64,000 nt of DNA, from the NCBI GenBank assembly GCA_963664705.1, contig OY761556.1, forward strand, positions 384,001-448,000. The letters are read 5' to 3'. This document shows, piece by piece, positions 43,596 through 64,000 of this stretch (position 1 is its first letter; every line of letters begins with the position of its first letter). Below the pieces are notes generated by a model that was not told the origin of the DNA, searched no databases, and worked only from the letters and a program-made list of their open reading frames with translations. Source of the DNA: Acidobacteriota bacterium. GTDB lineage: Bacteria; Acidobacteriota; UBA6911. The position numbers and the translations under genes were made by a program.

Positions 43596-43624
43596 TTGAC
43601 TGCGCCTGGAAAGAAAATTAGGAT
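43596..43624 (+). promoter_or_regulatory. Putative sigma70 promoter of TBDT 43900
   Basis: TTGACT-17 bp-TAGGAT; identical boxes and spacing at 47914-47942. Confidence 0.65.
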
Positions 43625-43766
43625 TGGCTCATATTGGGTTGATTCCTCACATTACGGTGCTGGTTTTCTCCGAACGATGATGAAGGGCTTTTGCTCTTGT
43701 TCGATGTGAGATTCCCGCGCATCACCAACTGATTCTATCTGGCCTTATACGACATAGCATTGCGAT

Positions 43767-43793
43767 CCTGTTCGATCACCCTGGCTCGAACAG
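43767..43793 (+). promoter_or_regulatory. Conserved leader hairpin, copy 1 (candidate cis-regulatory element)
   Basis: CCTGTTCGA-TCACCCTGGC-TCGAACAG. Confidence 0.55.
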
Positions 43794-43899
43794 TCATTGT
43801 GCTGGCCAGGGACCGCTGTCGGTATTGGCCTATCCACCATGGTTCCGGCATCGGCCCTCATTCTCAATTTCTTTCTCAACCTGAGGGAGGACATGTTTC

Positions 43900-46800
43900 A
43901 TGCGATCAATCATTAAAGCATTCGGCTGTGTGCTCATCCTTTCAGCGATGGCCCTTGCGCAGGGCGATCGCGGCACGATTACGGGAGCAGTGACCGATCC
44001 GGCAGGCGCCGTGATTGGTGGCGCGGCAGTCAAAGCAAAAAACGCGGCAACCGGCGCCGAGTATTCAACAATAACTACCAACACCGGCAACTACACTCTC
44101 GCCCAGTTGCTGCCCGGCCCTTATGAACTATCGGTTTCCATGTCCGGCTTCAAAACGCTTGCCCGGACAGGTCTCACCGTGGTTTCCGCGCAAATAATGC
44201 GCATCGACGCTGCCTTGGAAATAGGCGCAATCTCCGAAACCGTTTCCGTGGATGCCGCCGCTGCCCTGCTGAAGACGGAGAGCGGCGAACTGAGCCATAC
44301 CATCCAGGGGGAGTTGCTGAACAACCTACCCGTTTTTTCCATTGGCAGCTATGCAGGAACGACAGGCATCCGGAACCCATACGCTGTGATCCAGATGCTT
44401 CCGGGCGCCGATTTTACCCCCGATAACAACGTTAAGGTCAATGGCGCGCCGAGCAACACCCAGGGGTTGCGTGTCGAGGGCATGGATGCCACCAACAACA
44501 TGTGGCAGCAGATGTCCCAATATACGCAGACCGGCGTCGAAGCCGTCCAGGAATTCGGCATACAAACAAGCAACTACGCGGCCGAATACGGGCAGGCGGG
44601 AACGGCTGTGTTTAATTTGACGATGAAGTCCGGCACGAACCAGCTTCATGGATCCGCTTATGACTACTTCGTGAACGAAGCCCTGAATGCCGGAACGCCG
44701 TTTACGTCTGACGGGACGGGGGGAAAACTTCGTCCCCGCAATCGAAGAAACGACTTCGGCTTCACAGTCGGCGGGCCCGTGTATCTGCCCAAAATGTTCA
44801 ACGGTCGCGACAGGGCGTTCTTCTTTTTCAGTTTTGAACAGTATCGCCAGGCTACCACCACGAACAGCTTTGTGACAGTTCCCACTCTTGCCATGCGGAA
44901 AGGAGATTTCAGTGCGATCCAGGGTGCCGCTCCCCTGAAAAACTCCAGCGGCAATGTAATCACTGATGTGCTCGGCCGCCCGGTCTACCAGAATACGATC
45001 TATGACCCGAGCACAGAACGAGTTGTCAATGGAGTCCGGGTATGGGATCCCTTCCTCGGCAACAAGATCCCGCAGGAAAGATGGGATCCGGCTGCATTGG
45101 CCGTACAGAGCTACATGTATGAGCCGGGTTATGGTGGCGCGGATGCCTCGAAACTGACCAACAATGCGATGCTGACCGTTCCCGCATCCGTTGTGACCTG
45201 GATCCCATCAGTCAAAGTGGATTATTCGATTAGTCCAAGAGCCAAGGTATCCGGGTTTTGGTCAAGGAATAGCTATGCACCAGGTGGTTCTGCCGGCTTG
45301 CCCGCGCAGATCACTTCCTTCATGCCGACTCCATCCGTGAATCACACAGTCCGGCTCAACTTCGATTACACTGTCAAGCCCACCATGCTGCTGCATCTTG
45401 GTGCGGGACTTATGCAGACTGTCCTGACTTACAATGCCGGAGGACATACTCCCCAAAAGGATCTTAAAATACCTGGAGGAACAGACGCCAATCCGTATCT
45501 TACAACCATGATCAATACTACGTATGGTGGCTATTCTCCGGCGACAGGCCCGGCCATGGATGTGCGGTTTGTCGATCTGAAGCCGACGGCAAATCCCAGC
45601 TTGACCTGGATCAAGGGGAATCACAGTTACAAATTTGGCGGAGAACTGGTCGTGGAATCCCATCCGGACTATAGCAGGAGCTACGCCAATAACTATTACT
45701 ACTTCTCTCCAAACCAGACCGCGGATCCTTCCCTGAGCTTGAGCGGCACAACCCTCCCCTCCGGGACAGCCATCGGGTTCGCCTATGCCAGCTTTCTCAT
45801 GGGGAATTACAACCAGGTAACCAGCAACACGACCGCAAAAGGGCACCTGGGAAACCACGCCTTCGCTTTTTACGCGCAGGACTCGTGGAAGATCACGTCC
45901 AAAGTTACCTTGGATTACGGCTTGCGCTACGATTTCCAAACCTACCTGAAGGAGCAGTATGGCCGAATGGGCAGTCTGGTGCCCTCGGCGATGAACCCCA
46001 AAGTTGGTCTGCCGGGCGCAATTCAGTATGAAGGCAATGGGCAGGGACACTGCAACTGTGCATTTGGGAAAAACTATCCGTATGCCTTTGGCCCTCGGCT
46101 CGGGCTTGCGTGGCAGATGCTTCCCAAGACCGTATTACGTGCCGGCATCGGCATCTCCTACGGAAAGACAACAGAACTCGGCTACCTGAGCAATCAGTTG
46201 TCAGGTATGGTGAGTTATCAGAACCCGGGGCAGGGCCTGCCGGCCGGGCAATTATCGACAGGCGTACCTCCCGGCGTTACGCCGACGTGGCCTACAACGG
46301 ACACAAGCGCCTATCCGCATCTTCCCTCTCTCGACCCTCCGGCGATGTTTTACGATTACAACATGGGCCGGCCGTCCAGGACTGTCCAGTGGAGCTTCGG
46401 GATCCAGCGGGAAATCACCAAGGATTTGCTTCTGGAAGTCTCCTATGTTGGCAACCGCGGCGCATGGTGGTATGCCGGAGCATTGAGGGATTGGAACGCC
46501 TTAACCCCGGAGGATCTGAAAAGCAAATGGGGGCTTGACGTCGGAGTCAAGGCCGACCGGGACTTGCTGGTGAATACTTTAGGTGCTGCCCAGGCCAAGT
46601 ATCCCGGGCGGTTTACCACGCCCTTTGCCGGCTTTCCTGCGGCAACCGCAACGCTCGCTCAGGCGCTTGCTCCATTCCCTCAATTCTCAAGCATGAACCT
46701 GATCTTCGCGCCGTTGGGGCGTACCTGGTACGATGCTCTGCAGGCCAACCTCAACAAGAGGTTCGCGCATAATTTCTCTTTCCAATATAGTTTCACCTGG

Positions 46801-47574
46801 CAGAAGGAGCTCTATTCTGGAGCCGAAAACTCCTATTGGTTCGGCGGTCCCAGGAATGCTCTGATCAATGACGTGGCCAACCGGTCGGTCAACAAATACA
46901 TGTCAGGCTTGTCACGTCCACTAATGCATAACATAGCTCTGAGTTACACGACACCCAGGGTTTTCGCCCAATACAAGATGTTATCCCTGTTCTTGCGAGA
47001 CTGGCAGATCAACATCCAGGCTCGTTACAGGAGCGGGTATCTGCTTCAAGTGCCAGTTGCGTCCAGCAACCTGCCTAACGCTCTCCACCGCTCGGCTACC
47101 GGCGGGGCAGTCGCTGGAACCCCAACTACCTTTGCAAACAGAGTGCCGGGACAACCGGTGTTCATGGACCAGAGCGGCAACGCAATCGACATCAACAGCC
47201 GCAATTGGGACCCGAGCCAGGCCTTCGTACTTAATCCGAAAGCGTGGACGGAACCGGATGAGGGGAAGTTCGGCACCTCTGCGGCCTACTATAGTGACTA
47301 CAGGTCATTTCGCCATCCCCAGGAAAATGTGGGGTTGGCTCGTAACTTCCGGTTCGGCCGTGATGGTCGGATGAACCTGAATCTTCGGGCCGAATTCACC
47401 AATATCTTCAACCGGCTTTACCTGCCAGACCCAACAGCAACAAATGCCGGGGCAACACAAACCAAATCCTCTACCGGTCAACCGACTGGCGGATTCGGAT
47501 ATATCAACCTTCAGAGTTCTCAAATCGCGTCGAATGTCCGGATGGGCCAGATTGTCGCCCGCCTCAGTTTCTAA
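43900..47574 (+). CDS. TonB-dependent transporter, acidobacterial type
   Basis: Signal peptide, AQGDRGTITGAVTDPAGA, TSNYAAEYG, FYAQDSWKIT.K.TLDYGLRYD and C-terminal ARLSF. Confidence 0.93.
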   Translation: MRSIIKAFGCVLILSAMALAQGDRGTITGAVTDPAGAVIGGAAVKAKNAATGAEYSTITTNTGNYTLAQLLPGPYELSVSMSGFKTLARTGLTVVSAQIMRIDAALEIGAISETVSVDAAAALLKTESGELSHTIQGELLNNLPVFSIGSYAGTTGIRNPYAVIQMLPGADFTPDNNVKVNGAPSNTQGLRVEGMDATNNMWQQMSQYTQTGVEAVQEFGIQTSNYAAEYGQAGTAVFNLTMKSGTNQLHGSAYDYFVNEALNAGTPFTSDGTGGKLRPRNRRNDFGFTVGGPVYLPKMFNGRDRAFFFFSFEQYRQATTTNSFVTVPTLAMRKGDFSAIQGAAPLKNSSGNVITDVLGRPVYQNTIYDPSTERVVNGVRVWDPFLGNKIPQERWDPAALAVQSYMYEPGYGGADASKLTNNAMLTVPASVVTWIPSVKVDYSISPRAKVSGFWSRNSYAPGGSAGLPAQITSFMPTPSVNHTVRLNFDYTVKPTMLLHLGAGLMQTVLTYNAGGHTPQKDLKIPGGTDANPYLTTMINTTYGGYSPATGPAMDVRFVDLKPTANPSLTWIKGNHSYKFGGELVVESHPDYSRSYANNYYYFSPNQTADPSLSLSGTTLPSGTAIGFAYASFLMGNYNQVTSNTTAKGHLGNHAFAFYAQDSWKITSKVTLDYGLRYDFQTYLKEQYGRMGSLVPSAMNPKVGLPGAIQYEGNGQGHCNCAFGKNYPYAFGPRLGLAWQMLPKTVLRAGIGISYGKTTELGYLSNQLSGMVSYQNPGQGLPAGQLSTGVPPGVTPTWPTTDTSAYPHLPSLDPPAMFYDYNMGRPSRTVQWSFGIQREITKDLLLEVSYVGNRGAWWYAGALRDWNALTPEDLKSKWGLDVGVKADRDLLVNTLGAAQAKYPGRFTTPFAGFPAATATLAQALAPFPQFSSMNLIFAPLGRTWYDALQANLNKRFAHNFSFQYSFTWQKELYSGAENSYWFGGPRNALINDVANRSVNKYMSGLSRPLMHNIALSYTTPRVFAQYKMLSLFLRDWQINIQARYRSGYLLQVPVASSNLPNALHRSATGGAVAGTPTTFANRVPGQPVFMDQSGNAIDINSRNWDPSQAFVLNPKAWTEPDEGKFGTSAAYYSDYRSFRHPQENVGLARNFRFGRDGRMNLNLRAEFTNIFNRLYLPDPTATNAGATQTKSSTGQPTGGFGYINLQSSQIASNVRMGQIVARLSF

Positions 47575-47589
47575 TCTCTCCCTGGATTG

Positions 47590-47624
47590 TGCTGGGGGCC
47601 GGCCTAAGCTGGCCCCCAGCATTT
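47590..47624 (+). terminator. Rho-independent terminator-like hairpin
   Basis: TGCTGGGGGCCGGC / GCTGGCCCCCAGCA followed by TTT. Confidence 0.6.
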
Positions 47625-47625
47625 C

Positions 47626-47691
47626 AAAACGCCGCGATTGCACGAATTCCCCAAGAATGCTTTGGGCAATCCGTGTCATTCGCGACGTTTT
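47626..47691. repeat. CACGAATT-type nonamer-periodic hairpin
   Basis: AAAACGCCGCGATTGCACGAATT ... AATCCGTGTCATTCGCGACGTTTT; homologous to 51874-51936. Confidence 0.6.
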
Positions 47692-48201: not shown

Positions 48202-51200
48202 ATGCGTTTATTGCTGAAGGCATGCTGTTGCGTGCTCCTTCTGGCAGGAATTGCCCTTGCCCAGTCGGACCGCGGCACCATCACCGGCACCGTCACTGAT
48301 CCTGCAGGCGCTGTAGCTCCGAATGCTTCGATCAAGGCGAAAAACATAGGGAACGGTGCTGAATATCAGACATTGAGTACCAATACCGGCAATTACACAC
48401 TTGCCCAATTGCCATCTGGAAGCTATGAACTCACGGTTGCAATGACTGGATTTAAGACATTTGTCCGTCAGGGAATCACAGTCGCCGCAGCCCAAACCCT
48501 CCGCGTTAATGTCAGCCTCGAGGTGGGAGCCATTTCGGAGACCGTCACGGTCAGTGAAGATGCTCCTCTGCTCAAGACTGAAAGCGGGGAATTAAGCCAC
48601 AACGTCCGTTCGGATACGCTGGATTCGCTCCCGGTTTTGTCTATCGGCGGAAGCGCAGGCAGTACCGGTATTCGAAATCCATATGCCGTTATGCAGGTTC
48701 TGCCGGGCGCCGACTGGCGGCCGGATGCCAGCGTCAGAGTCAACGGTGCTCCCGGCAACTCGCAGGCTTTGCGCGTTGAGGGTATGGACGCGACCAATAA
48801 CATGTGGCAGCAACAAGGCCAATATACCCAGCAGGGTGTAGATGCTATTCAAGAGTTTGCTGTCGCCACCAGCAATTATGCGGCTGAATTCGGGCAGGCA
48901 GGATCTGCCGTATTCAACCTGACCATGAAGTCCGGTACGAATGCGCTGCATGGGAGTGTTTACGAATACTTTGTTAATGAGGCCCTCAACGCTTCGACGC
49001 CGTATTCGGAAGATAGTGCTGGAAACAAGAACCGGCCACGTTCCCGCCGGAACGATTTCGGATTCACCCTCGGTGGACCGATCTACGTGCCGAAAGTGTA
49101 TGATGGCCGTGACAAATCCTTCTTCTTTTTCAGCTTTGAGGAATATCGCCAGGCCACAACCACAAAGACCGCTGCGACGGTTCCAACGCTCAAGATGCGC
49201 ACCGGTGATTTCAGCGAAATCCTAGGAACAACCGCGATCGGCACGGATATTCTGGGCCGACCTATTTATGAGAACCAGCTATATGACTGGCGCACTGAAC
49301 GCCTGGTGAACGGCACGCGTATCTGGGATCCGTTCAAGAACAATCAAATTGATTCCTCTTTGTTTGATTCATCGGCAGTGCTGATTCAGGCGATGTTTCC
49401 CAAGCCGGAGACGTCCGGGCTGACTCAGAACTGGAATCAACAGACCGCAAACTCAACCCTGACCTTTATTCCTTCGGTCAAGATTGATTATTCGCTCAAC
49501 AACAAGGCCAAGTTGTCCGGATACTGGTCGAGGAATTCCTTCAATACGACCGCGGATGATGGCCTCCCAATCGCCATCACGGCTGGTGTACCCAATACCT
49601 TCCTGTCGCACACGCTGCGCGTCAATCTGGATTACACCATCACCCCGACCATGTTGTTACATGTCGGCACAGGGCTCATGGTCAACCGGATGAGACAGTT
49701 GGCTCCGCAAGGAGTGGATACAAAAGCCACCTTCGGAATCAACACGCAGGCAAAGGGTTTCCCATATATCGCTGGACCTGTCAGCACCAGCTTTGGTGGG
49801 TTCTCCCCGACGATGGGTTCGGTCATGAACTCCCAGCTTGATAATCTCAAGCCGACTGCGAATCCGAGTTTGACCTGGATTCGTGGGAACCACACCTATA
49901 AGTTTGGCGGAGAGTTGATCGTCGAATCGCATCCGAGCTACAGCGAAACATTCGCCAACAACTGGTTTACCTTTGCAACGGCTCAGACCGGCGATCCTTC
50001 GCTGGCCTATACCAACCTCGGTGGGAAAACGACCGGTTTTGCATACGCCAGCTTTCTTACCGGCCGCGTAGGCAGCGGGTATACAAATGCACCGAGCAGA
50101 GGACATCTGGGATCCCACTCCATTGCTTTTTATGCACAGGACTCCTGGAAGATCACGCCCAAGATCACCCTGGATTACGGGCTGCGTTATGATTACCAGA
50201 CCTATCTTAAGGAACAATACGGACGGTGGGCCAACTTCTCCCCAACCGCTTTGAATCCGAACATTATCAATCCCGTGACCAATCAGCCCATGCCGGGCGC
50301 CACTATTTTTGAGGGCAGCGGAGCGGGTCACTGCAACTGCAGTTTTGCAGATACCTACAAGTTTGCCTTTGGACCGCGCCTTGGTTTGGCTTGGCAGGTG
50401 ATGCCAAAGACCGTCATTCGCGCCGGTATCGGTATTTCCTACGGCCGAACCCCTGAACTTGGCTACCTGAACAACACGCTGTCAAGTTTTGTGACCTATG
50501 GCGCCACTGCTCCTGGTTTGGCTGCCGCCCAGCTGCATGACGGCCCTCCTGCGGCCTATACGGTTGTGTGGCCTGACATTCGCGCGGATGCATTCCCCAA
50601 ATTGCCCAGCCTTGGCCCACCGGCAATGGCGGTCGATCGCAACGCGGGCCGTCCTCCTCGGACCGTTCAGTGGAGCTTCGGTATTCAACGTGAAATTACC
50701 AAGGACCTGATGGTTGACCTTTCATATGTAGGCAACCGCGGTGCCTGGTGGCAGGCCAATCCGTTGGTTGATATCAACGGCGTAACCCCCGAATACCTGA
50801 AGACCAAGTGGGGATTGGATGTCAACAGTGCGGCAGATAGGACCCTGCTGACAACATCCTACGCGAACCTCTCGGCTGCGGACAAAATTCGATTCCCGTT
50901 GCCGTTTACCAAATTCCCTACAAGCTACAATCTGATCCAGGCGCTTCGGCCTTTCCCGCAGTTCAGCACCATCTCGATGATGTGGGCTCCGCTGGGACGC
51001 ACCTGGTACGATTCGGCTCAGCTCAAAGTAACGAAGAGGTTTTCGCATAACTTTGATTTGAGCTATAGCTTCACCTTCCAGAAAGAAATGACGATGGGTT
51101 CGGAACTCTCGTATCAGCTCTTCGGCACCATCAACCCGATGGTCGGCGATGTTGCAAATCGGGCATCCAATAAATACATCTCCGGTTTGTCGAGACCGTT

Positions 51201-51825
51201 CATGAACGTCGTTGCCACGAGCTACACGGTTCCTAAGGTTTTCCCTGGAAACAAAATCGTATCGCAGATTCTGCGCGACTGGCAGTTCAGCGCGCTGTTG
51301 CGCTACACCAGCGGACAGCCGCTCCAGGTGCCGAACTCTACTGGTTCGACTCAGACACTGTTGGCCCGCGCGAACAATACGTTTGCCAACAGAGTGGCCG
51401 GACAATCGCTCTTTGCCGATCAGAATGGCAACGCGATTGACATCAATGGGAATTACGATCCAGCCACCACGTTCGTGCTGAATCCCAAAGCATGGACATC
51501 GCCAGCGGATGGACAGTTCACCACTTCCACCGCCTATTACAACGATTATCGCGGCCGCAGGCATCCGACGGAAAACATGAGCTTGGCTCGTAATTTCCGG
51601 ATGGGACGCGACGGTCACTATACTCTGCAATTAAGGGCCGAGTTCAACAACATCTTCAACCGTCTGTATGTTCCCGACCCCAGCAACCTGACCGCTGGTG
51701 CAACCCAAACCTATAAAGCCGGTACAAACCTGACCACTGGCGGATTTGGGTACATCAACATGAAGGCTGCAGCAGTAGCCAGCAACGTGCGTACAGGACA
51801 AGTCGTCGCACGCTTCAGCTTCTAG
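48202..51825 (+). CDS. TonB-dependent transporter, paralog of 43900-47574
   Basis: Long shared tracts (GIRNPYAV, LRVEGMDATNNMWQQ, LKPTANPSLTWI, GHCNC.F) and C-terminal ARFSF. Confidence 0.93.
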   Translation: MRLLLKACCCVLLLAGIALAQSDRGTITGTVTDPAGAVAPNASIKAKNIGNGAEYQTLSTNTGNYTLAQLPSGSYELTVAMTGFKTFVRQGITVAAAQTLRVNVSLEVGAISETVTVSEDAPLLKTESGELSHNVRSDTLDSLPVLSIGGSAGSTGIRNPYAVMQVLPGADWRPDASVRVNGAPGNSQALRVEGMDATNNMWQQQGQYTQQGVDAIQEFAVATSNYAAEFGQAGSAVFNLTMKSGTNALHGSVYEYFVNEALNASTPYSEDSAGNKNRPRSRRNDFGFTLGGPIYVPKVYDGRDKSFFFFSFEEYRQATTTKTAATVPTLKMRTGDFSEILGTTAIGTDILGRPIYENQLYDWRTERLVNGTRIWDPFKNNQIDSSLFDSSAVLIQAMFPKPETSGLTQNWNQQTANSTLTFIPSVKIDYSLNNKAKLSGYWSRNSFNTTADDGLPIAITAGVPNTFLSHTLRVNLDYTITPTMLLHVGTGLMVNRMRQLAPQGVDTKATFGINTQAKGFPYIAGPVSTSFGGFSPTMGSVMNSQLDNLKPTANPSLTWIRGNHTYKFGGELIVESHPSYSETFANNWFTFATAQTGDPSLAYTNLGGKTTGFAYASFLTGRVGSGYTNAPSRGHLGSHSIAFYAQDSWKITPKITLDYGLRYDYQTYLKEQYGRWANFSPTALNPNIINPVTNQPMPGATIFEGSGAGHCNCSFADTYKFAFGPRLGLAWQVMPKTVIRAGIGISYGRTPELGYLNNTLSSFVTYGATAPGLAAAQLHDGPPAAYTVVWPDIRADAFPKLPSLGPPAMAVDRNAGRPPRTVQWSFGIQREITKDLMVDLSYVGNRGAWWQANPLVDINGVTPEYLKTKWGLDVNSAADRTLLTTSYANLSAADKIRFPLPFTKFPTSYNLIQALRPFPQFSTISMMWAPLGRTWYDSAQLKVTKRFSHNFDLSYSFTFQKEMTMGSELSYQLFGTINPMVGDVANRASNKYISGLSRPFMNVVATSYTVPKVFPGNKIVSQILRDWQFSALLRYTSGQPLQVPNSTGSTQTLLARANNTFANRVAGQSLFADQNGNAIDINGNYDPATTFVLNPKAWTSPADGQFTTSTAYYNDYRGRRHPTENMSLARNFRMGRDGHYTLQLRAEFNNIFNRLYVPDPSNLTAGATQTYKAGTNLTTGGFGYINMKAAAVASNVRTGQVVARFSF

Positions 51826-51837
51826 TCCATCGCAAGA

Positions 51838-54529: not shown

Positions 54530-56080
54530 TTACCTGGGGTCGACACAGGTAAAATTTTCGGCTTTGTTGATATCGCCGGATCCCTTGAATTTGGGGACTT
54601 TGGGATAGACGCATGCGGGCCTCGTCCGGGACACCACGCCTTTGTCTCGCTGTACGAAGGTAATTGTTTCCGGAGCTTCTCCTTTTTCTACCCAATTCTG
54701 AATGGCGGTAAAGGAGTCGAAGTCCTTCTGGCCGCCCATGAAACCCGGGCAGCCGGTCGATCCTGGGATCATGAACATTCGGGCAAAATCCTGCGTCTTG
54801 CCGGGTCCGCCCATGGTGCTTTCCACTTTCTCGTAATATTCCAGATAGCTGCGCACCGGCAGCGCATTCGAATTCCACGACCCGGCCAGGATGATCTTTC
54901 CGCCGGCCTTCTTAAAAGGCCTTAGGTCCGGATTATTGGCGTCCACCACTTTGCCGGCTTTTTTGATCCCCAGGCGAGTGTCCTTATCAACATCAAATGT
55001 GCGCCAGTCCCAGTTGAGGTCTTCTTTAACCATTCCTTTGAAGTAATCGACATTAACAAAGAAGGGATCTTTTTCAACCATGATAGGAGCCCAGGTCAAC
55101 TCGCTTCCCGGCTGGAAGCCGCTGTAGATCTGCGTTCCATCCTTGAATTTTGCTCCGGCATAGATCTTTTTCACCGTATCCACCTGGGCTGCAGTCAGGC
55201 AGGTCGGTTCATCGGTGTTGCCGCTGCACTGGATGGTTTTTGGGTCAAATTTGCATTCTCGCGGGTCGGTAATCAAACCATCTTTGAAGCCGTCAATGGC
55301 ATCGCAGGCTTCAATGGCGGCTTGGTTGATGATCCCGAGCTTCTTTCCGATATAGCCGGGAGCATTGACTCCATCTTTCAGGGCTACCCAGCTTATGTAC
55401 AGCGATCCGGGCTGTAAATGAGAGATCCAGTAGGCGGGATCGGTTACGACGATTCCGTCATAATCGTTCGGGTAGCGCTGTGCTTCGTTCAGTCCCTGGT
55501 TGCTTCCGTTGTGGCAGCTGTTCCAGTAGGAGTGCTGAGCAGGTTTGCCGTAATATGCAGTGATAAATGCTTTTGCTGCAACCGTCATTTCGTGAACCGC
55601 GCGATAACCCCAGTCCGCCCATTTTTCCGGGTGGCCGACTGCCCATTTTGCCGTGTCGTCAACATGGCCGGTATCAGTGGATGCGGTTGCCCATCCCTGC
55701 GCGACATTGCCTGCAAGAGCACCGCGGGCCAGGGATCCGATGAACCCCGGGTTCCCCACGCCAAAAAATCTGCCGTTCCAATTGGAGGCGAGCGGGAGCC
55801 AGACCTCGATTCCGATGTGCGAATCTTTGGATGGCGCCGAATAGGCTTCAATGCGGCAGAACGGAACCGAAACCTTTTGTCCGGCCTTGGTGTTGATAAA
55901 ACCTTCCTGTACGGGCATTTCCCATCCGGCATCCATGGCCTTTGCCGAGGTAATGGTGAGGTTGGGTATCTTGAGCGATGTCAGGCTTTCGCAGGATTGT
56001 TGAGCATGTACGGGCAATGTAAGAAACAGGAAAGCGGCCAGCATTCCTATCGCGATACAGGAGCAAGTTCGCAAATTCAT
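54530..56080 (-). CDS. Secreted tannase/feruloyl-esterase-fold protein with non-canonical catalytic residues
   Basis: Signal peptide, IEVWLP...WNGRF.G.GN.G, ASTDTGH, AQRYP.DYDG, CDA.DG..DG.I.DP..C, NPDL.PF...GGK, WVEKG.AP and RP.C.YP. Confidence 0.88.
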   Translation of the reverse strand: MNLRTCSCIAIGMLAAFLFLTLPVHAQQSCESLTSLKIPNLTITSAKAMDAGWEMPVQEGFINTKAGQKVSVPFCRIEAYSAPSKDSHIGIEVWLPLASNWNGRFFGVGNPGFIGSLARGALAGNVAQGWATASTDTGHVDDTAKWAVGHPEKWADWGYRAVHEMTVAAKAFITAYYGKPAQHSYWNSCHNGSNQGLNEAQRYPNDYDGIVVTDPAYWISHLQPGSLYISWVALKDGVNAPGYIGKKLGIINQAAIEACDAIDGFKDGLITDPRECKFDPKTIQCSGNTDEPTCLTAAQVDTVKKIYAGAKFKDGTQIYSGFQPGSELTWAPIMVEKDPFFVNVDYFKGMVKEDLNWDWRTFDVDKDTRLGIKKAGKVVDANNPDLRPFKKAGGKIILAGSWNSNALPVRSYLEYYEKVESTMGGPGKTQDFARMFMIPGSTGCPGFMGGQKDFDSFTAIQNWVEKGEAPETITFVQRDKGVVSRTRPACVYPKVPKFKGSGDINKAENFTCVDPR

Positions 56081-56228: not shown

Positions 56229-58640
56229 CTAGATTTTCCCGAGGGCTTTCAAAACTCTATCCGGTGTTGTCGGGTAATCCAAAACCCATTTCCCGGTTGC
56301 ATTGTAAATGGCCGCAGCCGTGATTCCCGACATGGCGGCACCTGAATTTTCTCCGATGCCAAAGGATCCGAATGCTGCGTACCCCAGATGGCTTTCATTG
56401 AGGAGACAGGTCGAGGCCGGGTAGTCGTTCATCGTCCCGATATGGTAATTGACCAGGTCGAAGTTCAAGGCGACACCGGTGCGCGGACACCAGACATGTT
56501 CCTCGGTGGCACTCCTCCCCAATCCCATGATGGCTCCGCCATACTGTTGAGCCTGGGCTCCGCGAGGATTAAAGAGATGCCCGACATCGTTGACACAGAC
56601 GATGTTGGTGACGTCGACCATCCCTGTCTCCGTATCCACTTCGACTTCAATGAAGTGAGCCTGCCGTCCCATCGCGTACCAGGTGCTGTCGGGTTTCCCA
56701 TCCACCGTCAGACTGGTTACTCTTCCCACCACAGGATGGGTAATGGCCGGATCTGCATCCCAGAATATGTCCGCGACTTCGCGGACTGTCTTGCGGTTGG
56801 ATGGATTCGCTTTTTCGAAGACGTAACTGTCTTTGATGTCCAGATCCTCCGGCTTCTTGCCTGGGAATGCCGGCGGTTGTGCCGTCTTGAAGAAGTGGCT
56901 CGTATTGTAGGCGGGGGTTGGCCGCACAGCATATTCGAGAATTTTCTTCTTCAGTTCCTTTGCAGCCATTATCAACTGGGTGGTGATAAAGGTTGTTGAA
57001 TAGGATCCTCCCGGCTGCCACATGTAATAGCTGCTGTTATCCGAGCGCTTTTCGTGGATGACAGTGTGTTCGTACTTCAGCCCCAGTTCCGAAGCTACAA
57101 TGTGGCGTGCCCCGGATTCGCTGTCCACTCCGAGGTCCGCTCGCACTCCCACGATCGCCAGAATGCCATTGCGAAGCATCAGACAGCCAAAGGTCATTCC
57201 CGGCTCAGGCGCCCAGAAAGCCCATTCATTGACTTCCATAAAGCCCATGCCGTGCATCCTGCCATTCGGCAGTTTCTTGGAGCCTGGCGCGTGCCACTTC
57301 TTGTCCCAGGCGATGGCCGCCTTTCCCTTATCAATGACTTCTTTCAGAGACCAGCGCTGAGGAAATCCGTTTTCCTTCTGGTACCGCGTAACCCAATCCC
57401 AGTCGTGCCCTCTACATCCGTCGTTCTTTAGCGCGACCTCTGTTGGATCCAGTCCGAATTCCGCGGCGACGCGGCTGATCATCACATCATGCGGAACAGT
57501 CGCATGGGAGCCATGGCGGAAACAGATGAGATGCCCCTTGTTGACCAGTGGCCACTGCACCGTGCCGCGTATGTTGGGTATCTTGGTGCATTCGTAGGTT
57601 TTGTCGACGGCGGCATTGCGGACTCCAATCAAGTCCCACTGACAAGCTGTAATGGTTCCGTCCTTTTTCGCTCCTACCTTGCAGGTATATGTTCCCGCTT
57701 CGTCTCCGAGGACCAGGTGATTGCTCTGGTCATACAGAAGTTTTACCGGTCGGCCTTCCGCTCTCCTGGCCAGGATGACCGCAATGCGTGTGAAGCACAT
57801 CGAGTAGGCAAGCCACGAAAAACCGCCGAAATAGGCGCCCTGATAGGGCATGGTCACGGTAATCTTCGACCAGTCCGCTAATGGCGCGACCGCTTTTTCT
57901 CTTTTGTCCAACGGGTTGACCAGGAACCATTGCGGAATATCCTGATGATGAACCCACATATCGAGAAAGTCTCCCCGCCATTGAGCCACGCAGACCGCCG
58001 GTTCTACTCCCGCGGACGAGTTGTATTCTCTTTTGATCGTGTATTGGATCACCTTGTCGGCTTCGGCAAATCCCTTTTCCATGTCGCCGTAGGTCACGTC
58101 TTCCGCAAAGATAGTGTTCGGATCCTTTGCCTTCTCGTTCACCCGTTTGACTTCGGGCATGGTTTTGATTGCGTTCGGCCTGGCAGCCTCTTCCATGTCC
58201 AGGATGAACGGCTGCTCTTCCCAGTCGATTTTCACGGCTCGCAGGGCTCTGTCGCAGGCTTCCTCGCTGTCGCCAACAACCGCAACGCCCATCGGGTGAT
58301 TATAATAATCGCTGGCTCCGGGAAGGCTGAGGATATCGCACATGCCGGAAACCTCGTACCATGCGCCTGTCCCGCTGTCATATTTGATGTCGGAATCATC
58401 AAAGGTCATGATGTCCCGTACACCCGGCAAAGCCTTTGCCTGGCTTATGTCGATCTTCGTGATTTTTGCGTGGGCATAGGGAGATGTGAGAATTTTGGCA
58501 TACAGCATCCCTGGCAGATAAATGTCTCTGGTATAGGCTGCTTTGCCGCTTGCCCTTTCATGCCCATCCTGTCGCGGCATATTGTTCTGGGTTTTTCGAT
58601 AGTCTTCTGGCACCGGCCAGGTCCAGGGTCTGTAATCCAT
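56229..58640 (-). CDS. Xanthine oxidase-family molybdopterin-binding large subunit (paralog of 51949-54441)
   Basis: Same motifs as the paralog; shares RPWTW, CFRHGS, ALKNDGC.GHDWDWVT.YQKEN and YHIGTMNDYP. Confidence 0.92.
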   Translation of the reverse strand: MDYRPWTWPVPEDYRKTQNNMPRQDGHERASGKAAYTRDIYLPGMLYAKILTSPYAHAKITKIDISQAKALPGVRDIMTFDDSDIKYDSGTGAWYEVSGMCDILSLPGASDYYNHPMGVAVVGDSEEACDRALRAVKIDWEEQPFILDMEEAARPNAIKTMPEVKRVNEKAKDPNTIFAEDVTYGDMEKGFAEADKVIQYTIKREYNSSAGVEPAVCVAQWRGDFLDMWVHHQDIPQWFLVNPLDKREKAVAPLADWSKITVTMPYQGAYFGGFSWLAYSMCFTRIAVILARRAEGRPVKLLYDQSNHLVLGDEAGTYTCKVGAKKDGTITACQWDLIGVRNAAVDKTYECTKIPNIRGTVQWPLVNKGHLICFRHGSHATVPHDVMISRVAAEFGLDPTEVALKNDGCRGHDWDWVTRYQKENGFPQRWSLKEVIDKGKAAIAWDKKWHAPGSKKLPNGRMHGMGFMEVNEWAFWAPEPGMTFGCLMLRNGILAIVGVRADLGVDSESGARHIVASELGLKYEHTVIHEKRSDNSSYYMWQPGGSYSTTFITTQLIMAAKELKKKILEYAVRPTPAYNTSHFFKTAQPPAFPGKKPEDLDIKDSYVFEKANPSNRKTVREVADIFWDADPAITHPVVGRVTSLTVDGKPDSTWYAMGRQAHFIEVEVDTETGMVDVTNIVCVNDVGHLFNPRGAQAQQYGGAIMGLGRSATEEHVWCPRTGVALNFDLVNYHIGTMNDYPASTCLLNESHLGYAAFGSFGIGENSGAAMSGITAAAIYNATGKWVLDYPTTPDRVLKALGKI

Positions 58641-58760: not shown

Positions 58761-60191
58761 CTAATGCGTTCCGAACAATATGGCGCCCTGTTTCTGGAGG
58801 ATGTCCTGCAGTTCGGTCACATCCTGTTCGAGTTGTCTGGGCGTAATGCTCTTGCGCGCACAAATGCCGGCGGCCACACCCGCGGCCTGTCCCGTCACCA
58901 TCGTTTCCTGCAGAAATCTCTTATAGGAATCTCTGTCGGTTGAGATGGCTTTGCCTGCAACGAGCAGATTGTCGATCACCCGCGGCACGAGGCAGCGATA
59001 AGGTATATCGTACGATCCGCCGTCTTTAGGATGGACGACTCCCTGGTAGGCAATTGTGTCGCCGGTGGCGATGTGTTTGGCTCCTGACGAGAAGCCGCTC
59101 TTGCCGATTACATCCTTAAACTTTCTTGCCTCGGCACAGTCCGCTTTGGTCAGAACGTAATCGCCCATGATGCGGCGGCTTTCGCGGATGCGCAGTTCTG
59201 CGCACATGCGGGTCAGATAGGAGTTTTCGAAGCCGGGCATGTATTTCTTGATGAATTTCAGTGCCATCCGGATCTGTTTCCGGCATTCGACTTCGCAATA
59301 GGTCAGATCCCGAACATCCGTAGGATCGGAATTGCCCACCTGCGATGAGTGCTGGAAGTGCGCCTGCAGGTGGCCATTATCTCGGGGCATGATGAAGAAA
59401 CCTACGCCGCTGTATTCGTGCCATTCGCCCGCGGCCAGTGCCTTGTCGCGCAGGGAATAAAAGCCCATGAAATTGGTGATTTCCCGGACATCCTTGACCT
59501 GGCGGAATCTCTCGGCAATCTGTTCATTTGTCCAGTTAAGATAGGGATGCGTCATGAAGTTGATGTCGAAGGCCACGTTATCTTTGACATACTGCAGAAC
59601 CTTGTCCCAGTCCACACCATCGACTGTGAAAGATACGGTGTGTGGCTCCAGCTGATCCTTCGACACCTTTTCAAATGGGGCGCCGGCTCTTGCTGAGATT
59701 TCGCCTTCTCCCGTGCAATCAATGATTATCTTTCCAAGCACGGCCTGGCGGCCCGAGGGATTCTCAACGATGACTCCGCAGATCGCGTCGCCATTCTTCA
59801 GGACATCGACCGCGAGGGAGTGCAGTTGCAGATGGACGCCGTTCTCCTCCATCATTTCAAAAATCAGGAGTCCCCAGTAATCCGGGTCTACGAGCGCAAA
59901 GTCGTATCCAATCCTAAAGTCCGGAATAGTGTGCGGGATGGCATGCCCGGCCTTCAGCAACCGCTGATGGGTTTCCTCCATAATGCCGCCGATAATCTGC
60001 TCTTTGCGTGGATTGAACATGTAGGCATAGGCAAATCCCGGAGGTCCCGAGACATTCATTTGTCCGCCCAGAACACCCAACCGTTCAATGAGGATTGTCT
60101 TGGCGCCGGTACGGGCAGAGGCGATCGCTGCGGCCACTCCGGATGTTCCTCCGCCGACGACCACAACATCAAATTCTCCATAAATTTCCAT
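58761..60191 (-). CDS. FAD-dependent oxidoreductase (FAD_oxidored-type)
   Basis: DVVVVGGGTSG..AAIASAR.GA, IDCTGEG, RESRRI.GDY.LT, YDIPYRCLVP..IDNLLVAG and GQAAG.AA. Start at MEIYGEF. Confidence 0.9.
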   Translation of the reverse strand: MEIYGEFDVVVVGGGTSGVAAAIASARTGAKTILIERLGVLGGQMNVSGPPGFAYAYMFNPRKEQIIGGIMEETHQRLLKAGHAIPHTIPDFRIGYDFALVDPDYWGLLIFEMMEENGVHLQLHSLAVDVLKNGDAICGVIVENPSGRQAVLGKIIIDCTGEGEISARAGAPFEKVSKDQLEPHTVSFTVDGVDWDKVLQYVKDNVAFDINFMTHPYLNWTNEQIAERFRQVKDVREITNFMGFYSLRDKALAAGEWHEYSGVGFFIMPRDNGHLQAHFQHSSQVGNSDPTDVRDLTYCEVECRKQIRMALKFIKKYMPGFENSYLTRMCAELRIRESRRIMGDYVLTKADCAEARKFKDVIGKSGFSSGAKHIATGDTIAYQGVVHPKDGGSYDIPYRCLVPRVIDNLLVAGKAISTDRDSYKRFLQETMVTGQAAGVAAGICARKSITPRQLEQDVTELQDILQKQGAILFGTH

Positions 60192-60264: not shown

Positions 60265-60273
60265 CTGTGTCTC

Positions 60274-62007
60274 CTACTTCTTGAATTCCTCGATATTCCT
60301 GGCGACCTTGCCGTTCGGCAAAGTGACCGGCAGGACAATGCCTTCGCTGTGCAATGCCCAGGGCAGAATAACACCGGAATGACCGCCGCGCCCGCCGGCA
60401 ACCACGATTTCAACATCCTTGGGCGAACGTGTTACCGGCATCGGATGTTTTGTCGCGAACTCGGGTGGGCGGACCGGTACAAGCCCTCTTCCGCGCACCA
60501 TGGGGGTATCGTGAACGGCGCGCAGATGAATGTGCTCGCGGATCATGTCTTTTGTGTATCCTGAATTCTTGAGCATCATTCCATGATCGGGCGTGAGGAC
60601 GAGGATGAGCGGGCCTGGAATGTAGGCGTTGTTGGTGCCGAGCGTGGTGCAGCAATCCGTAATCGTATCCAGGAGATCGTGGCCATTCAGGCTCAGGAAA
60701 TCAATGATATCGTGCTGCGGTTCCGCCTTGAGGACATAGACGGTGGTGGTTTCCGCGTCGTAGTGTTCCTCGTTAATCATCTGCCATTGGGCCAGACTCG
60801 GTTCTTCGGCAAAGCAGTAGGTAAATTCCGCCTGCGAGGCAATACAATCCAGATCGCAGATGCCGGGCACCGAACGACAGACGTTCAGGATAACCAGGTT
60901 TACAGCACGGCCCAACGTGGCATTTCCAGGATAGCCGGGACCGAGGCATCCTTGTTTGCCGGACAGCCCGATCTGCTGCGCAATGGGTCCGCTGACCAGA
61001 ACCAGGTTTCCCCCGGGATGCGAGGTCGTAACGGATTGAAGCAGATTGTATCTGCGGTCCGCCAGCGCTTTAAACGCAGCCACCAATACGGGCATGGCCT
61101 GCGGCTTACATCCGGCCATGACCGCGGCAATCGCGACATCCTTAACCGTAACGTCCTTGCCGGTCGGCCCGACTTCACGCCACAGCGTTTCGTCCGGGCT
61201 CCAGGGGCAGTAGGCATACATTCGGTTCAGCCGGGACTGAGTCGGCGGAATCACTGGCAGTCCATCTCCGATGTGCTCCCGGTCGAGATAATCCATGACC
61301 TCTTCCATGTAGCAGCCCGGTTCGCACAGTTTGTCCTCCTGGACTTTGAGTGCTTCCGTTATTGGCAGGAGGCCATCTGCGGCCGGAGGAACGAGATCCA
61401 TCTTGAAATCGATGCGGGCTACTTCTGCCAGTTTCTTGGGTTCGGCCGTCAACGAATCAGTGATGTAATCCCACTTCAGATCGATCTGTTGCCGGACTTC
61501 CTCAACAGTGCTCGCCTGGTAGATATCAATTTTGCACAGGCACAGGTTGCCGGCGCGATAGACGGCAACACCCTCCACCAGTTCGCCGCCCGGAGGCGCC
61601 GTAATATAGACGGTCGGGATACCAAGTTTTTCCAGCGCGATGGTTACAATGCACGTGGCGGGAGATGTTCCCATATCGCCAAGTGCTACCACGGCCGCAT
61701 CCGGCTTTTCCTTGGCCAGCATCGCCGCATATGCCTCCAGCGCTTTCGTGTCCTTTCCTCTAACGGTTTCCAGATAATCAATAAAATTGCTGATTCCCAT
61801 TTCACGAAAGCGCTCCTTGATACGGACAAAGACCTCTCCGTAATTGCAGAAGCTGAGTTTCGTGTTGTTGTAAAACAGAATTTTGCCTTTTTTCAGCTTA
61901 TCAATAGTTGTCCTGGGGGCCAGTTTTAGAATTGGCCTCTCCTGAATTCCACGCGGGTCCAACAAAGAAGTAAGTTTACCGTCCAAGTGAAGACACTCCT
62001 TTCGCAT
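60274..62007 (-). CDS. UGSC-family-like fusion protein (N-terminal UGSC-like domain + large partner domain), lacking Sec
   Basis: N-domain NNTK...DAAVVALGDMGTS...LEKLGIPTV. C-domain GDGLPVIPPT, VAIAAVMAGCKP, NATLGRAV.L, CFAE and IVVAGG. Confidence 0.7.
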   Translation of the reverse strand: MRKECLHLDGKLTSLLDPRGIQERPILKLAPRTTIDKLKKGKILFYNNTKLSFCNYGEVFVRIKERFREMGISNFIDYLETVRGKDTKALEAYAAMLAKEKPDAAVVALGDMGTSPATCIVTIALEKLGIPTVYITAPPGGELVEGVAVYRAGNLCLCKIDIYQASTVEEVRQQIDLKWDYITDSLTAEPKKLAEVARIDFKMDLVPPAADGLLPITEALKVQEDKLCEPGCYMEEVMDYLDREHIGDGLPVIPPTQSRLNRMYAYCPWSPDETLWREVGPTGKDVTVKDVAIAAVMAGCKPQAMPVLVAAFKALADRRYNLLQSVTTSHPGGNLVLVSGPIAQQIGLSGKQGCLGPGYPGNATLGRAVNLVILNVCRSVPGICDLDCIASQAEFTYCFAEEPSLAQWQMINEEHYDAETTTVYVLKAEPQHDIIDFLSLNGHDLLDTITDCCTTLGTNNAYIPGPLILVLTPDHGMMLKNSGYTKDMIREHIHLRAVHDTPMVRGRGLVPVRPPEFATKHPMPVTRSPKDVEIVVAGGRGGHSGVILPWALHSEGIVLPVTLPNGKVARNIEEFKK

Positions 62008-62085
62008 TCCTGATTTAGCACAAACAGCCTAATTTGGGGTGGCAGCCAGGTCAACGAAAATCGGGTAGGAATCTGTGCCGCGGGC

Positions 62086-62158
62086 GCCTTTGGAGCGGGC
62101 CGTTTGCTGCCGCCTTATAGAGCCGAAAGATGGTGGCAATCCACCGTTCTTCCAAGGC
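62086..62158. repeat. Degenerate REP-like doublet
   Basis: GCCTTTGGAGCGGGCCGTTTGCTGCCGCCTT ... GGTGGCAATCCACCGTTCTTCCAAGGC. Confidence 0.55.
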
Positions 62159-62167
62159 CTTCAACAT

Positions 62168-62207
62168 AAAAAAAGGCTGGCGATCGATATGATTGCCAGC
62201 CTTTTTT
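62168..62207 (-). terminator. Rho-independent terminator (A/T tracts on both sides)
   Basis: AAAAAAAGGCTGGCGATC / GATTGCCAGCCTTTTTT. Confidence 0.85.
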
Positions 62208-62224
62208 AAATTGGGATTCAGCAG

Positions 62225-64000
62225 CTATGCTTTACCGAGCTTGCCCTTGGACTGCAGGACGTCGGCGACCTGCTTCATGCCGAGATCCTCGAGCGTCTTG
62301 CGTTTGGGATAACCCGAATCCGGGTCCCAGCCCTCGATCTTATAGAAGTGAGTCTTAAACTGATCGACTCCTTCCCTGGTGAAGTAGAGTTCCTTGCAGT
62401 TTTGGAACTCCCATTTATCACCGTTGAGGATGGGCAACGTCTGGGCATATCCGCAATAGGAGGCGCCGGGCCTGTAGTAATAGCCCGAGAAATTCTCCAT
62501 CTTTTTGTGTCTGCCCTGCATCACGAAAATCGCCCGCTTTAAAGTCCATGCGCGTCGGCCAATCTCCAATCCATCGTTGAAGGAATGGTTTCTTCCGGTG
62601 ATTGCATTGAGGAACGTGGGTTCGGCGGTAGGAGTGCGCCCGTTGTTGAGCTGGCAGTATCCCCAATCGCAGAAGCCGACCGATTCCTTGTAATAGTTCC
62701 AGTAGTGTTGGTGCCAGGCGACCCATTCGGCTTTGTGTTTGGAATAGATGCCCGTCTTATACGCCTGATCCCCTTGCCAGGTATAATCGAACCAGAGCGG
62801 TTCGTTCCTTAGCGTGCCGGCCGCATAGTTTTTCACACTCTGTTCAGCATCCCCTCGCCCCCAGCTGATATCGTGGCTGTTGATATCTCTGGAATCGAGC
62901 AGATTGCCGTAAGCCCATTCGACTCCGGGCATGGACCAGTGATCCATGAATCCCCACATTGTCTGGCGAGCCAGAGTATTGAAGTCATCGGTTCTTCCAA
63001 TCGCTTCAACCAGGCGAGCTGTTCCCTCTCCGAGGAGCTTGCCAAAGCCTTCTCGGTTGGCGATCGCCCGGCCATACATCTCCATGAATTCCTGGCTTGG
63101 GAATTTTTCCATTGGAAGAGGCGCCGTGTCGAACTTGGTGCCGGGGCCGATGATCTTCATCTCATACATCTTCATCATGTACCAGCCGAGCGCGGAGTAG
63201 GCGGGAATATTCGGCTGAATCGGGAATTCCTTGTTGTGGGCAGTCGGGAATGACATCGGACCCTGGAAACAGGTTTCCATGCCATTGATTCCAAACTGCT
63301 GAATGATGTCGGTCCCTTTCTGATTGATGTCGCGCGGGAGTTGCACACCGTTGGACTGTTCTTTCGTAATGGAGAACCATGTCGATTCCGCGCAATCGTC
63401 GGAATCCGCACTGTAAGCCCGGTTTCGCGTGTGGCACATTCTGCTGCCCATGCCGCAGCCCGCGCAGCATGAGGAAACATCATTGGCTCCGCCGCCAAAC
63501 CCGCCGCCGCCGGGAGTGCCGCGGAAATACTTTTCCTTGGCATCAACAAGCGCTTTGGGATCGGCTATTTTGAGACTGCCGGAGCCTACGACCGCAACGG
63601 CTTTCAGGTTTTTTGAACCGAAAACGCCGCCAAATCCACCCTGACCGGCGCCACTGCCGCCGCCATGTACGAGGGAAGCAACTCTCGTCATGTTTTCACC
63701 GGCCGCTCCAATCGTGACGATTGCGGGTCTTTGCAGCGTAAATCCGCCATCCAACTGCTGCCAATCCGTTCCGTAGCGAACGCCTGTTCTCTTCCAGATT
63801 TCCTCCTGGCATTTCCAAGTGGTCATGCCCCATAAATCTTTGGCGTCTTCCAGGGTCACTTTGTCGTCAACGATATTGATGTATACAGGAGAGTCCGCTT
63901 TGCCTATCACTGCCACGCCATCCCAGCCGGCCAGCTTCAGCATCGTAGAAAACGTGCCGCCGAAATTGCTGTGACACCACCACTGGATTGGATAACACTG
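62225..64000 (-). CDS. Second AOR/WOR/YdhV-family oxidoreductase (5' end outside the window)
   Basis: The frame is open to the window edge (QCYPIQWWCHSNFGGTFSTMLKLAGWDG); GAAGEN, GGVFGSKNLKAV and DSGYPKRKTLEDLGM. Paralog of 25903-27948. Confidence 0.92.
   Translation of the reverse strand, partial: QCYPIQWWCHSNFGGTFSTMLKLAGWDGVAVIGKADSPVYINIVDDKVTLEDAKDLWGMTTWKCQEEIWKRTGVRYGTDWQQLDGGFTLQRPAIVTIGAAGENMTRVASLVHGGGSGAGQGGFGGVFGSKNLKAVAVVGSGSLKIADPKALVDAKEKYFRGTPGGGGFGGGANDVSSCCAGCGMGSRMCHTRNRAYSADSDDCAESTWFSITKEQSNGVQLPRDINQKGTDIIQQFGINGMETCFQGPMSFPTAHNKEFPIQPNIPAYSALGWYMMKMYEMKIIGPGTKFDTAPLPMEKFPSQEFMEMYGRAIANREGFGKLLGEGTARLVEAIGRTDDFNTLARQTMWGFMDHWSMPGVEWAYGNLLDSRDINSHDISWGRGDAEQSVKNYAAGTLRNEPLWFDYTWQGDQAYKTGIYSKHKAEWVAWHQHYWNYYKESVGFCDWGYCQLNNGRTPTAEPTFLNAITGRNHSFNDGLEIGRRAWTLKRAIFVMQGRHKKMENFSGYYYRPGASYCGYAQTLPILNGDKWEFQNCKELYFTREGVDQFKTHFYKIEGWDPDSGYPKRKTLEDLGMKQVADVLQSKGKLGKA

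Follow-up and report, generated by a model that had tools for sequence, protein, structure and literature searches.

The genome of Acidobacteriota bacterium (UBA6911; assembly GCA_963664705.1) contains, on contig OY761556.1, a run of genes for redox and hydrolase-like proteins that faces a pair of TonB-dependent transporter (TBDT) genes. These genes were analyzed in the stretch from position 384,001 to position 448,000, which is 64,000 nucleotides (nt) long and is referred to as the window. The conserved unit of the run consists of three genes, encoding a fusion protein with a UGSC-like domain (UGSC fusion), a PF12831 flavoprotein (FAD oxidoreductase), and a Mo large subunit of the xanthine oxidase (XO) family (XO2). 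A Tat-signal FeS protein with an AOR-family subunit and a tannase-fold protein with a second XO-family subunit (XO1) are separate modules, joined to this unit in part of the genus. That the core is real and the TBDTs are incidental to it is quite likely, and the best overall explanation, which we hold with modest confidence, is that a three-gene cytoplasmic core degrades a small imported solute and has twin TBDTs beside it in this genome only.

A sequence-only reading of this DNA had described two TBDT paralogs on the plus strand converging on a minus-strand run of AOR, UGSC-like, FAD, XO2, tannase-fold, and XO1 genes, and had interpreted the whole as a single locus resembling a polysaccharide utilization locus (PUL), with the two TBDTs as importers of aromatic esters or aldehydes that the entire run would then hydrolyze and oxidize anaerobically. 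The layout is confirmed: in the open reading frame (ORF) listing and in Pfam and NCBIfam scans of the window proteins, every gene named is present and intact, and families agree (Table 1). Contigs from two short-read runs cover positions 44001 to 64000 in one piece with zero differences, both runs being from one sample that is possibly the window's own source.

Conservation of the core within and beyond the genus

Gene order was compared in 30 genomes of the genus, many of which are fragmented. Orthologs of the UGSC fusion, counted at 80% identity or more (four genomes with only a 64 to 66% UGSC protein of another branch were left out), are carried by 19 further genomes, and the FAD oxidoreductase gene is directly next to them in 18, the 19th locus being cut by a contig end. 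The FAD oxidoreductase itself has orthologs (at least 79% identity) in 24 other genomes; XO2 is directly next in 18 of these and no more than 6 kb away in 3, one genome has it on another contig, and 2 are contig-limited. An AOR of the focal subfamily directly precedes the UGSC or FAD gene in 10 of 24 genomes (63 to 91% identity), the tannase-fold gene stands immediately before 4 of 25 XO1 orthologs, and 5 other genomes have XO1 and XO2 no more than 15 kb apart. Within the genus, 7 genomes also have a member of the URO-D family near the core, 4 have a GlcD/GlcF-like pair there, and G007, G018, and G064 have a CoxS-CoxL-CoxM set just upstream of XO2 or UGSC.

A metagenome scan kept 80 loci, most of them short. 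Contig L160 carries AOR-UGSC-FAD-XO2-(MBL)-tannase-(other XO)-XO1 at 79 to 90% identity and contig L158 carries XO2-tannase-XO1 at 91 to 95%, and both favor the reading of one PUL-like locus. Against that reading, the slot that TBDTs fill in the window, between XO1 and a Zn-ADH-family gene, is occupied by non-TBDT genes in L160, in which XO1 is followed by a selenocysteine (Sec)-type UGSC gene, an MBL gene, and the ADH ortholog. L158 is too short to show the slot, and contig L161 has tannase-XO-XO1 and no TBDT. Since ADH is unlinked to XO1 in the 20 other genus genomes that carry it, it serves as an anchor in L160 only.

Beyond the genus, a genome scan with the UGSC fusion kept 71 loci, 26 distant matches (27 to 34% identity) not being counted. 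The set outside the genus comprises 27 loci with the same fusion type at 57 to 82% identity, assigned by their record titles to five phyla plus others. A FAD homolog adjoins UGSC in 15 of these 27 loci and lies within 6 kb in 2 more; the FAD-bearing loci come from Bacillota, Spirochaetota, Actinomycetota, Desulfobacterota/Deltaproteobacteria, and other Acidobacteriota. Within four genes of UGSC (122 of 153 neighbors scanned; raw counts without a background control), a transporter of the TRAP, TTT, ABC, or MFS type is encoded in 19 of the 27 loci (15 by Pfam and 4 by a common BLAST best hit) and a URO-D/corrinoid methyltransferase in 7. Of the 17 FAD-bearing loci, 6 contain a canonical AOR or aldehyde dehydrogenase, and two of these 6 are near-identical. 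No XO2-type gene was detected outside the genus among 301 genomes of the phylum, with the best three or fewer candidates scored per genome; distant XO2 relatives at 40 to 46% identity exist in records with generic names.

In two loci from other Acidobacteriota (L049:5252-16804 and L050:2479-13412), the gene order is LysR, a TBDT of another subfamily, MFS, UGSC, FAD, corrinoid protein, and methyltransferase, a tidier uptake-and-catabolism locus than that in the window. The window's own genome (G000) also has, at positions 2793801 to 2801305, a second FAD paralog (66% identity) with an MFS gene and a distant TBDT after it; in G001, this FAD-MFS pair lies beside a 66% UGSC gene. The earlier idea of an uptake-and-enzyme system survives in part, in that the minus-strand subset is conserved, its enzymes have no characterized close relative, and the core lies beside transporters outside the genus.

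The TBDT pair and its surroundings

TBDTs of the TBDT1/2 subfamily (E <= 1e-200, best 23 or fewer candidates scored per genome) were found in 10 of 29 other genus genomes, the best match being 63% identical and its neighborhood unrelated. Among 84 loci that surround core genes and are redundant in part, none has a TBDT1/2-type gene; about 16 of the genomes represented extend 6 kb or more past XO2, and the TBDT matches in these loci are confined to L049 and L050 and are of the other subfamily. Outside G000, 1 of 41 subfamily TBDTs lies within 10 kb of an XO1/2-type gene, compared with about 1.0 expected by chance (74 XO coordinates, two of them estimated). Co-occurrence of the genes in related genomes had been set beforehand as the test of a single locus: the UGSC, FAD, and XO2 genes keep together, but the TBDTs do not follow them. 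Judging from these gene orders, the pair neighbors the core in this genome alone and probably does not belong to the conserved unit. Overall G+C content (GC) and that at third codon positions (GC3) agree between the TBDT and enzyme genes and give no compositional sign of a foreign origin of the TBDT genes. Among the window proteins scanned, none matches a SusD-like Pfam family.

The sequence-only reading had also held that the TBDT genes look co-regulated. The shared features are real, both TBDT starts being preceded by identical promoter-like hexamers and, at a distance of about 130 nt, by a 24-nt motif, but they are common to the two TBDT leaders alone and were not seen upstream of the enzyme genes, which may still have an operator in common with the TBDTs that the motif search did not reveal. 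A promoter scan gave 7 sites overall versus 13.3 in shuffled sequences, which is not above background, so the promoter-like matches alone carry no weight. The 24-nt motif has no further copy in the intergenic DNA of G000 or in the 139 fetched loci, and no motif common to the TBDT and enzyme upstream regions was found. These leader features are likely a relic of tandem duplication and do not connect the pair with the enzymes.

The genes converge and hairpins lie between them, which, together with the missing common upstream motif, speaks against one PUL-like locus. A single co-transcribed run is improbable as well: because a hairpin with a U-tract separates AOR from UGSC, the AOR-to-XO1 run is probably not one transcript. 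This hairpin and those after TBDT1 and TBDT2 were not listed by a simple scan and stand out by their z-scores. Three families of REP-like palindromic intergenic repeats, each with copies elsewhere in the genome, occur at 47625 to 47695, 51870 to 51940, 58658 to 58742, and 62100 to 62165. Neither the window nor the 20-kb locus that follows yields an Rfam match, and five ORFs at 18388 to 23648, 31729 to 34032, and 41250 to 41801 (319, 351, 1033, 767, and 183 aa) are without a Pfam match.

Table 1. Genes and candidate transcription signals of the locus, in window coordinates
Feature	Position	Strand	Description
Zn-ADH-family gene	42377..43459	-	Synteny anchor; ortholog 3 kb past XO1 in contig L160, which lacks the TBDT pair
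Promoter-like TTGACT-17-TAGGAT upstream of TBDT1	43596..43624	+	Identical hexamers upstream of TBDT2 at 47914-47942
24-nt motif with weak hairpin	43767..43790	+	z about -3; second copy in TBDT2 leader, about 48065-48087
TBDT1	43900..47574	+	CarboxypepD_reg + OMP_b-brl_4 TonB-dependent transporter, 1224 aa
Terminator-like strong hairpin after TBDT1	47575..47630	+	z -5.9
TBDT2	48202..51825	+	1207 aa; 58% identical to TBDT1
Hairpin between converging TBDT2 and XO1	51835..51875		z -5.3; followed by dispersed palindromic repeat
XO1	51949..54441	-	XO-family Mo large subunit, 830 aa; no adjoining 2Fe-2S or FAD subunit gene
Tannase-fold protein	54530..56080	-	Signal-peptide-like start (by eye); PF07519, E 4e-100
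XO2	56229..58640	-	XO-family Mo large subunit, 803 aa; 59% identical to XO1; third core gene in genus
PF12831 FAD oxidoreductase	58761..60191	-	476 aa; core gene
UGSC-like fusion, selenium-free	60274..61986	-	570 aa, TTG start; N-terminal UGSC domain + 375-aa domain; core gene
Terminator-like hairpin + U-tract between AOR and UGSC	62160..62215	-	z -7.8
AOR/WOR-family subunit	62225..64267 (window ends at 64000)	-	680 aa; AFOR domains, non-canonical motifs; accessory module
Tat-signal 4Fe-4S subunit, AOR partner	64289-65032, just past window		Precedes AOR; out of sight of the sequence-only reading

Active sites of the encoded proteins

The sequence-only reading stated that nearly every member of the cluster departs from the active-site consensus of its family. 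This is borne out for the tannase-fold protein, the UGSC fusion, and the AOR, and in part for XO1 and XO2, which keep the Arg and Glu motifs, but not for the FAD oxidoreductase, in which the GGGxxG motif is intact.

The UGSC fusion matches PF24696 at 26.2 bits (cutoff, 25) and NF041046 at 24.9 bits, far below the cutoff of 125. In place of UxxC it reads MGTS, as do 120 of its 120 closest homologs, and a wider set reads VGVS, MGTT, or MGTS; its close relatives are 81 to 90% identical. None of 36 aligned orthologs has Sec or Cys at either UxxC position. The 375-aa C-terminal domain has no Pfam or NCBIfam match. With a structure model of pLDDT 89.6, Foldseek returned no match at E <= 0.001, and the highest-ranked of the weak rows were class I fumarate hydratases with a TM score of about 0.2. 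In a VIA search restricted to residues 27 to 193, the modeled N-terminal domain resembles flavodoxin/Rossmann-like alpha/beta folds (Z about 10); a Trx-like fold is suggested in a paper on UGSC selenoproteins. A fusion termed "UGSC/Unknown_1" and described among UGSC selenoproteins (PMC2398784, PMC13188914) likewise combines a PF24696 domain with a large unannotated domain and is presented in these sources as functionally uncharacterized; unlike it, the window protein has MGTS for UxxC, a PF12831 flavoprotein partner, and no signal peptide (localization of all proteins was judged by eye, with no predictor).

The FAD oxidoreductase is matched over its full length by PF12831 (E = 1.7e-93), with a GGGTSG motif, and its Atlas matches are all PF12831. 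A PDB sequence search matched the Rossmann motif alone and returned no solved close relative, and Foldseek with the model retrieved generic flavoenzyme folds only, the top match being a geranylgeranyl-reductase-like protein at a TM score of 0.46.

The tannase-fold protein is homologous to 6g21 over its full length (E = 1.6e-65), and the whole catalytic triad is replaced: Ser by His190 in 120 of the 120 closest homologs, Asp by Ser404 in 115, and His by Gly443 in 118. The flanking pair Cys189 and Cys444 is kept in 120 of 120. The tannase/feruloyl esterase/MHETase family is defined by a CS-D-HC motif (PMC7070470); the window protein shares its fold-level homology and the flanking cysteines and differs in having conserved His, Ser, and Gly at the three catalytic positions. 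Because the triad is replaced, the protein is not a canonical serine esterase and is unlikely to hydrolyze esters, and the aromatic-ester substrate once guessed is not supported. Among the 13 tannase-fold paralogs of G000, 10 keep CS and HC. The His-type subfamily, which includes the window protein and a gene at G000 4862168 to 4863895, carries C-H-N at the nucleophile elbow and lacks the catalytic Asp and His, although databases name it feruloyl esterase; close homologs occur in 27 of 30 genus genomes.

In the AOR, a motif with Cys stands in place of PEYE/Glu313, DxxGxD is also replaced, and GRGG reads GQGG, with GSKNLKA kept. Canonical AOR paralogs and the AORs of L039, L066, and L080 keep PEYE or PDFE. 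The extra Cys292 is invariant in 16 lineage sequences and lies at +24 from the first Fe-S Cys; a BamB-like paralog has its Cys at +23, and canonical AORs have none. Cys292 sits in the BamB column in one alignment and a few columns off in others; the middle domain aligns poorly to 1aor, and His443 is invariant in the lineage alignment. BamB as the top relative was dropped, the profile having contained the BamB-like paralog; a lineage-only profile ranks 1aor above BamB. The best NCBIfam match is PRK09849, which we take to be the YdhV family. According to one review, aldehyde-oxidizing AORs keep Thr243, Glu313, Tyr427, and His448, and YdhV and BamB carry a metal Cys ligand instead, Cys336 and Cys322, respectively (PMC12096430). 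Compared with the enzymes treated there, the window AOR shares AFOR_N and AFOR_C, GSKNLKA, at least four Cys, and pairing with a polyferredoxin; it differs in the replaced PEYE/Glu313 and DxxGxD motifs, in GQGG, and in the extra Cys near the BamB ligand position, and belongs to a roughly 15-paralog subfamily that fits neither clade clearly.

Aldehyde oxidation by the focal AOR, another element of the earlier proposal, is doubtful because the PEYE/Glu313 motif is replaced; since the changes are common to about 15 paralogs, they mark the subfamily and not the locus. Many of these approximately 15 G000 paralogs, with their non-canonical motifs and extra conserved Cys, are paired with Tat 4Fe-4S genes, and some have no third Fe-S Cys; the paralog at G000 3824814 to 3826775 looks BamB/YdhV-like. 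The related operon reported at 23.9 to 30 kb of the window is present as a run of esterase (GLSMG intact), Tat-FeS, AOR, and OYE genes (23872 to 30054), but its AOR, 39% identical to the focal one, is from another branch of the same subfamily and is one of the similar paralogs.

XO1 and XO2 have the hammerhead and both Moco-binding domains and keep the Arg and catalytic Glu (GE) motifs; RGFG reads RHGS. The best solved relative of XO2 is the 4-hydroxybenzoyl-CoA reductase alpha subunit. With XO trimers such as 4-hydroxybenzoyl-CoA reductase, PaoABC, and CoxSML, the two subunits share domains, Arg, and Glu at about 25 to 30% identity, and they differ in having no small or medium subunit gene within 230 kb, the nearest CoxS-like gene being more than 230 kb away. 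Of the 24 XO large subunits of G000, 12 are orphans, lacking any 2Fe-2S gene closer than 3 kb, and four CoxS+CoxM pairs occur by themselves, which suggests that large subunits share electron-transfer modules and that XO1 and XO2 could use CoxS/CoxM in trans. A second orphan XO subfamily in G000 lacks the GE motif and has GISH instead. XdhC-family genes and PBP_like_2 binding proteins, the latter presumably of the family including TupA, are also encoded in G000.

Proposed function, alternatives, and UGSC expansion

The full catabolic mechanism that we propose for the core is tentative. A small polar, probably methylated compound would enter through a carrier of the inner membrane, which in other lineages is of the TRAP, TTT, ABC, or MFS type, and the flavoprotein and UGSC protein would oxidize a C-N or C-S bond with release of an aldehyde. 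The UGSC protein, having lost its Sec/Cys pair, would serve as a partner or binder. XO2, with 2Fe-2S and FAD subunits borrowed from elsewhere, would oxidize the aldehyde to the acid, taking the job of the canonical AOR or aldehyde dehydrogenase in other phyla, and a corrinoid methyltransferase, often encoded nearby, would remove the methyl group.

Several observations weigh against an imported-solute core with incidental TBDTs. No enzyme of the cluster has a characterized close relative, and the aldehyde step and methylated substrate are read only from the neighboring genes. Among the close co-directional gene pairs of 38 fetched loci, 57 of 73 are also adjacent in G000, these genomes being kin, and because of this background the trio behaves as an ordinary operon, with AOR and tannase-XO1 as looser modules. 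The order AOR-FAD, with UGSC elsewhere, is found in G003, G007, and G018; 10 of the 27 loci outside the genus, mostly from the 57 to 67% branch, have UGSC and no FAD homolog; and XO2 beside the core is seen inside the genus alone. The separation of TBDTs from the core is limited by the number of candidates scored per genome, a TBDT does stand beside UGSC-FAD in L049 and L050, and TBDTs in G000 lie near other, Sec-type UGSC genes (9 of 33 with the focal locus left out, versus 2.0 expected; P = 0.0005), so that the TBDTs may yet be involved.

This proximity bears on a second reading, which is possible although improbable: a genus-wide modular kit, whose loci are built from TBDTs, exported UGSC selenoproteins, Tat-exported AORs, and orphan XO subunits, and in which the TBDT pair would feed the periplasmic AOR/FeS proteins and a tannase-fold binding protein, not the cytoplasmic trio. 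AOR-UGSC (5 of 19 versus 1.1; P = 0.012) and TBDT-XO (4 of 33 versus 1.3; P = 0.04) proximities outside the focal locus point the same way, and only TBDT-UGSC survives correction for 15 pair tests. TBDT-UGSC neighbors also occur in G006 and G064, and the gene in the TBDT slot of L160 is of the Sec-type UGSC kind. The enriched partner, however, is Sec-type UGSC, which is absent from the focal cluster, and the clustering could reflect shared insertion-tolerant regions.

The kit also draws on the most striking side item of this analysis, the expansion of UGSC selenoproteins in the genus. PF24696 matches number 9 to 54 per genome in the 30 genus genomes versus 0 to 2 in 21 other genomes of the family. 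In an ORF set of 5180, G000 has 35 TBDT, 24 XO large subunit, 20 AOR, 35 UGSC-like, 13 tannase-fold, and 8 PF12831 genes. An in-frame TGA stands at the UxxC site, after a long open frame, in 31 of the 35 UGSC genes; one further TGA-bearing gene, with 9 open codons upstream, was dropped as a chance match. Many of the predicted selenoproteins have signal-peptide-like or Tat starts (e.g., in loci L155, L156, and L157), and G000 carries two selA genes and three tRNA-Sec calls. Standard gene calling breaks these genes at the TGA. UGSC proteins are reported as uncharacterized and among the commonest selenoprotein families in aquatic metagenomes (PMC2398784, PMC13188914). A 58-kb contig (G006:C29; L122 to L124) is dense in XO subunits, Sec-type UGSC genes, and CoxS/CoxM, with a TBDT pair, a mix similar to that of the window with other paralogs.

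A broader and equally improbable claim is that the genus runs numerous and so far undescribed "redox utilization loci," in which TBDTs would feed dozens of exported UGSC selenoproteins, Cys-ligated AORs, orphan Mo subunits, and a His-centered tannase fold acting on small non-sugar solutes. The cluster would then be a hub, where the cross-phylum selenium-free UGSC/flavoprotein pair would carry out C-N or C-S cleavage of an undescribed enzymology.

A reductive core is less probable again, and we regard it as unlikely. Its UGSC domain would be PrdB/GrdB-like, the FAD protein would supply electrons, and the Cys-bearing AOR would be a BamB/YdhV-like reductase. Residues 87 to 132 of the UGSC fusion faintly match PrdB (TIGR04483), but at E = 0.15 the match is not significant, and the Sec/Cys nucleophile is missing in every aligned ortholog. 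The solved relative of XO2, the extra AOR Cys with its near-BamB spacing and PRK09849 match, and the reductase-like top structural match of the FAD protein fit this reading; the lineage-only AOR profile and the spread of Foldseek matches over many flavoenzyme types, all with TM scores below 0.5, do not.

The least probable reading is the PUL-like one: six families fell in one cluster in none of 2000 independent circular shifts (maximum, 4; a post hoc test, the families having been chosen from the cluster itself), TBDT-XO-UGSC clusters recur at G000 4.05 to 4.06 Mb and in G006:C29, and a TBDT for a lignin-derived biphenyl is described in PMC6874591, but the 84 core loci lack such TBDTs, TBDT-XO proximity elsewhere is at chance, the tannase triad and AOR Glu313 motif are gone, and no ring-cleavage or benzoyl-CoA pathway gene is among the annotated neighbors. 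A TBDT-coupled system for aromatic oxidation does not hold on present evidence. With PULs, carbohydrate utilization containing TBDT (CUT) loci, and the TBDT-dependent aromatic uptake described for Sphingobium SYK-6 (PMC6874591), the window shares a TBDT gene next to catabolic enzyme genes; it differs in that the TBDT-enzyme linkage is not conserved, the genes converge, and neither a SusD-like Pfam match nor aromatic pathway genes were seen.

Catabolic operons of a transporter with redox enzymes are a known kind. A core with these rewired members was not found in the open-access literature, subscription papers and supplements being outside the scope of the search, and the main text of a genomics preprint on the family (10.1101/2021.04.09.439258) contains no occurrence of "molybd-," "TonB," "seleno-," or "xanthine," although its supplements may list such genes. 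The locus offers three conserved rewired active sites, namely, a tannase fold with His at the nucleophile position, an AOR with an extra Cys, and orphan XO subunits. The persistence, in five phyla, of a selenium-free UGSC protein next to one flavoprotein and a transporter for solutes makes the function of UGSC testable, and, if the reading of redox utilization loci is true, it would provide the first function for the UGSC family.

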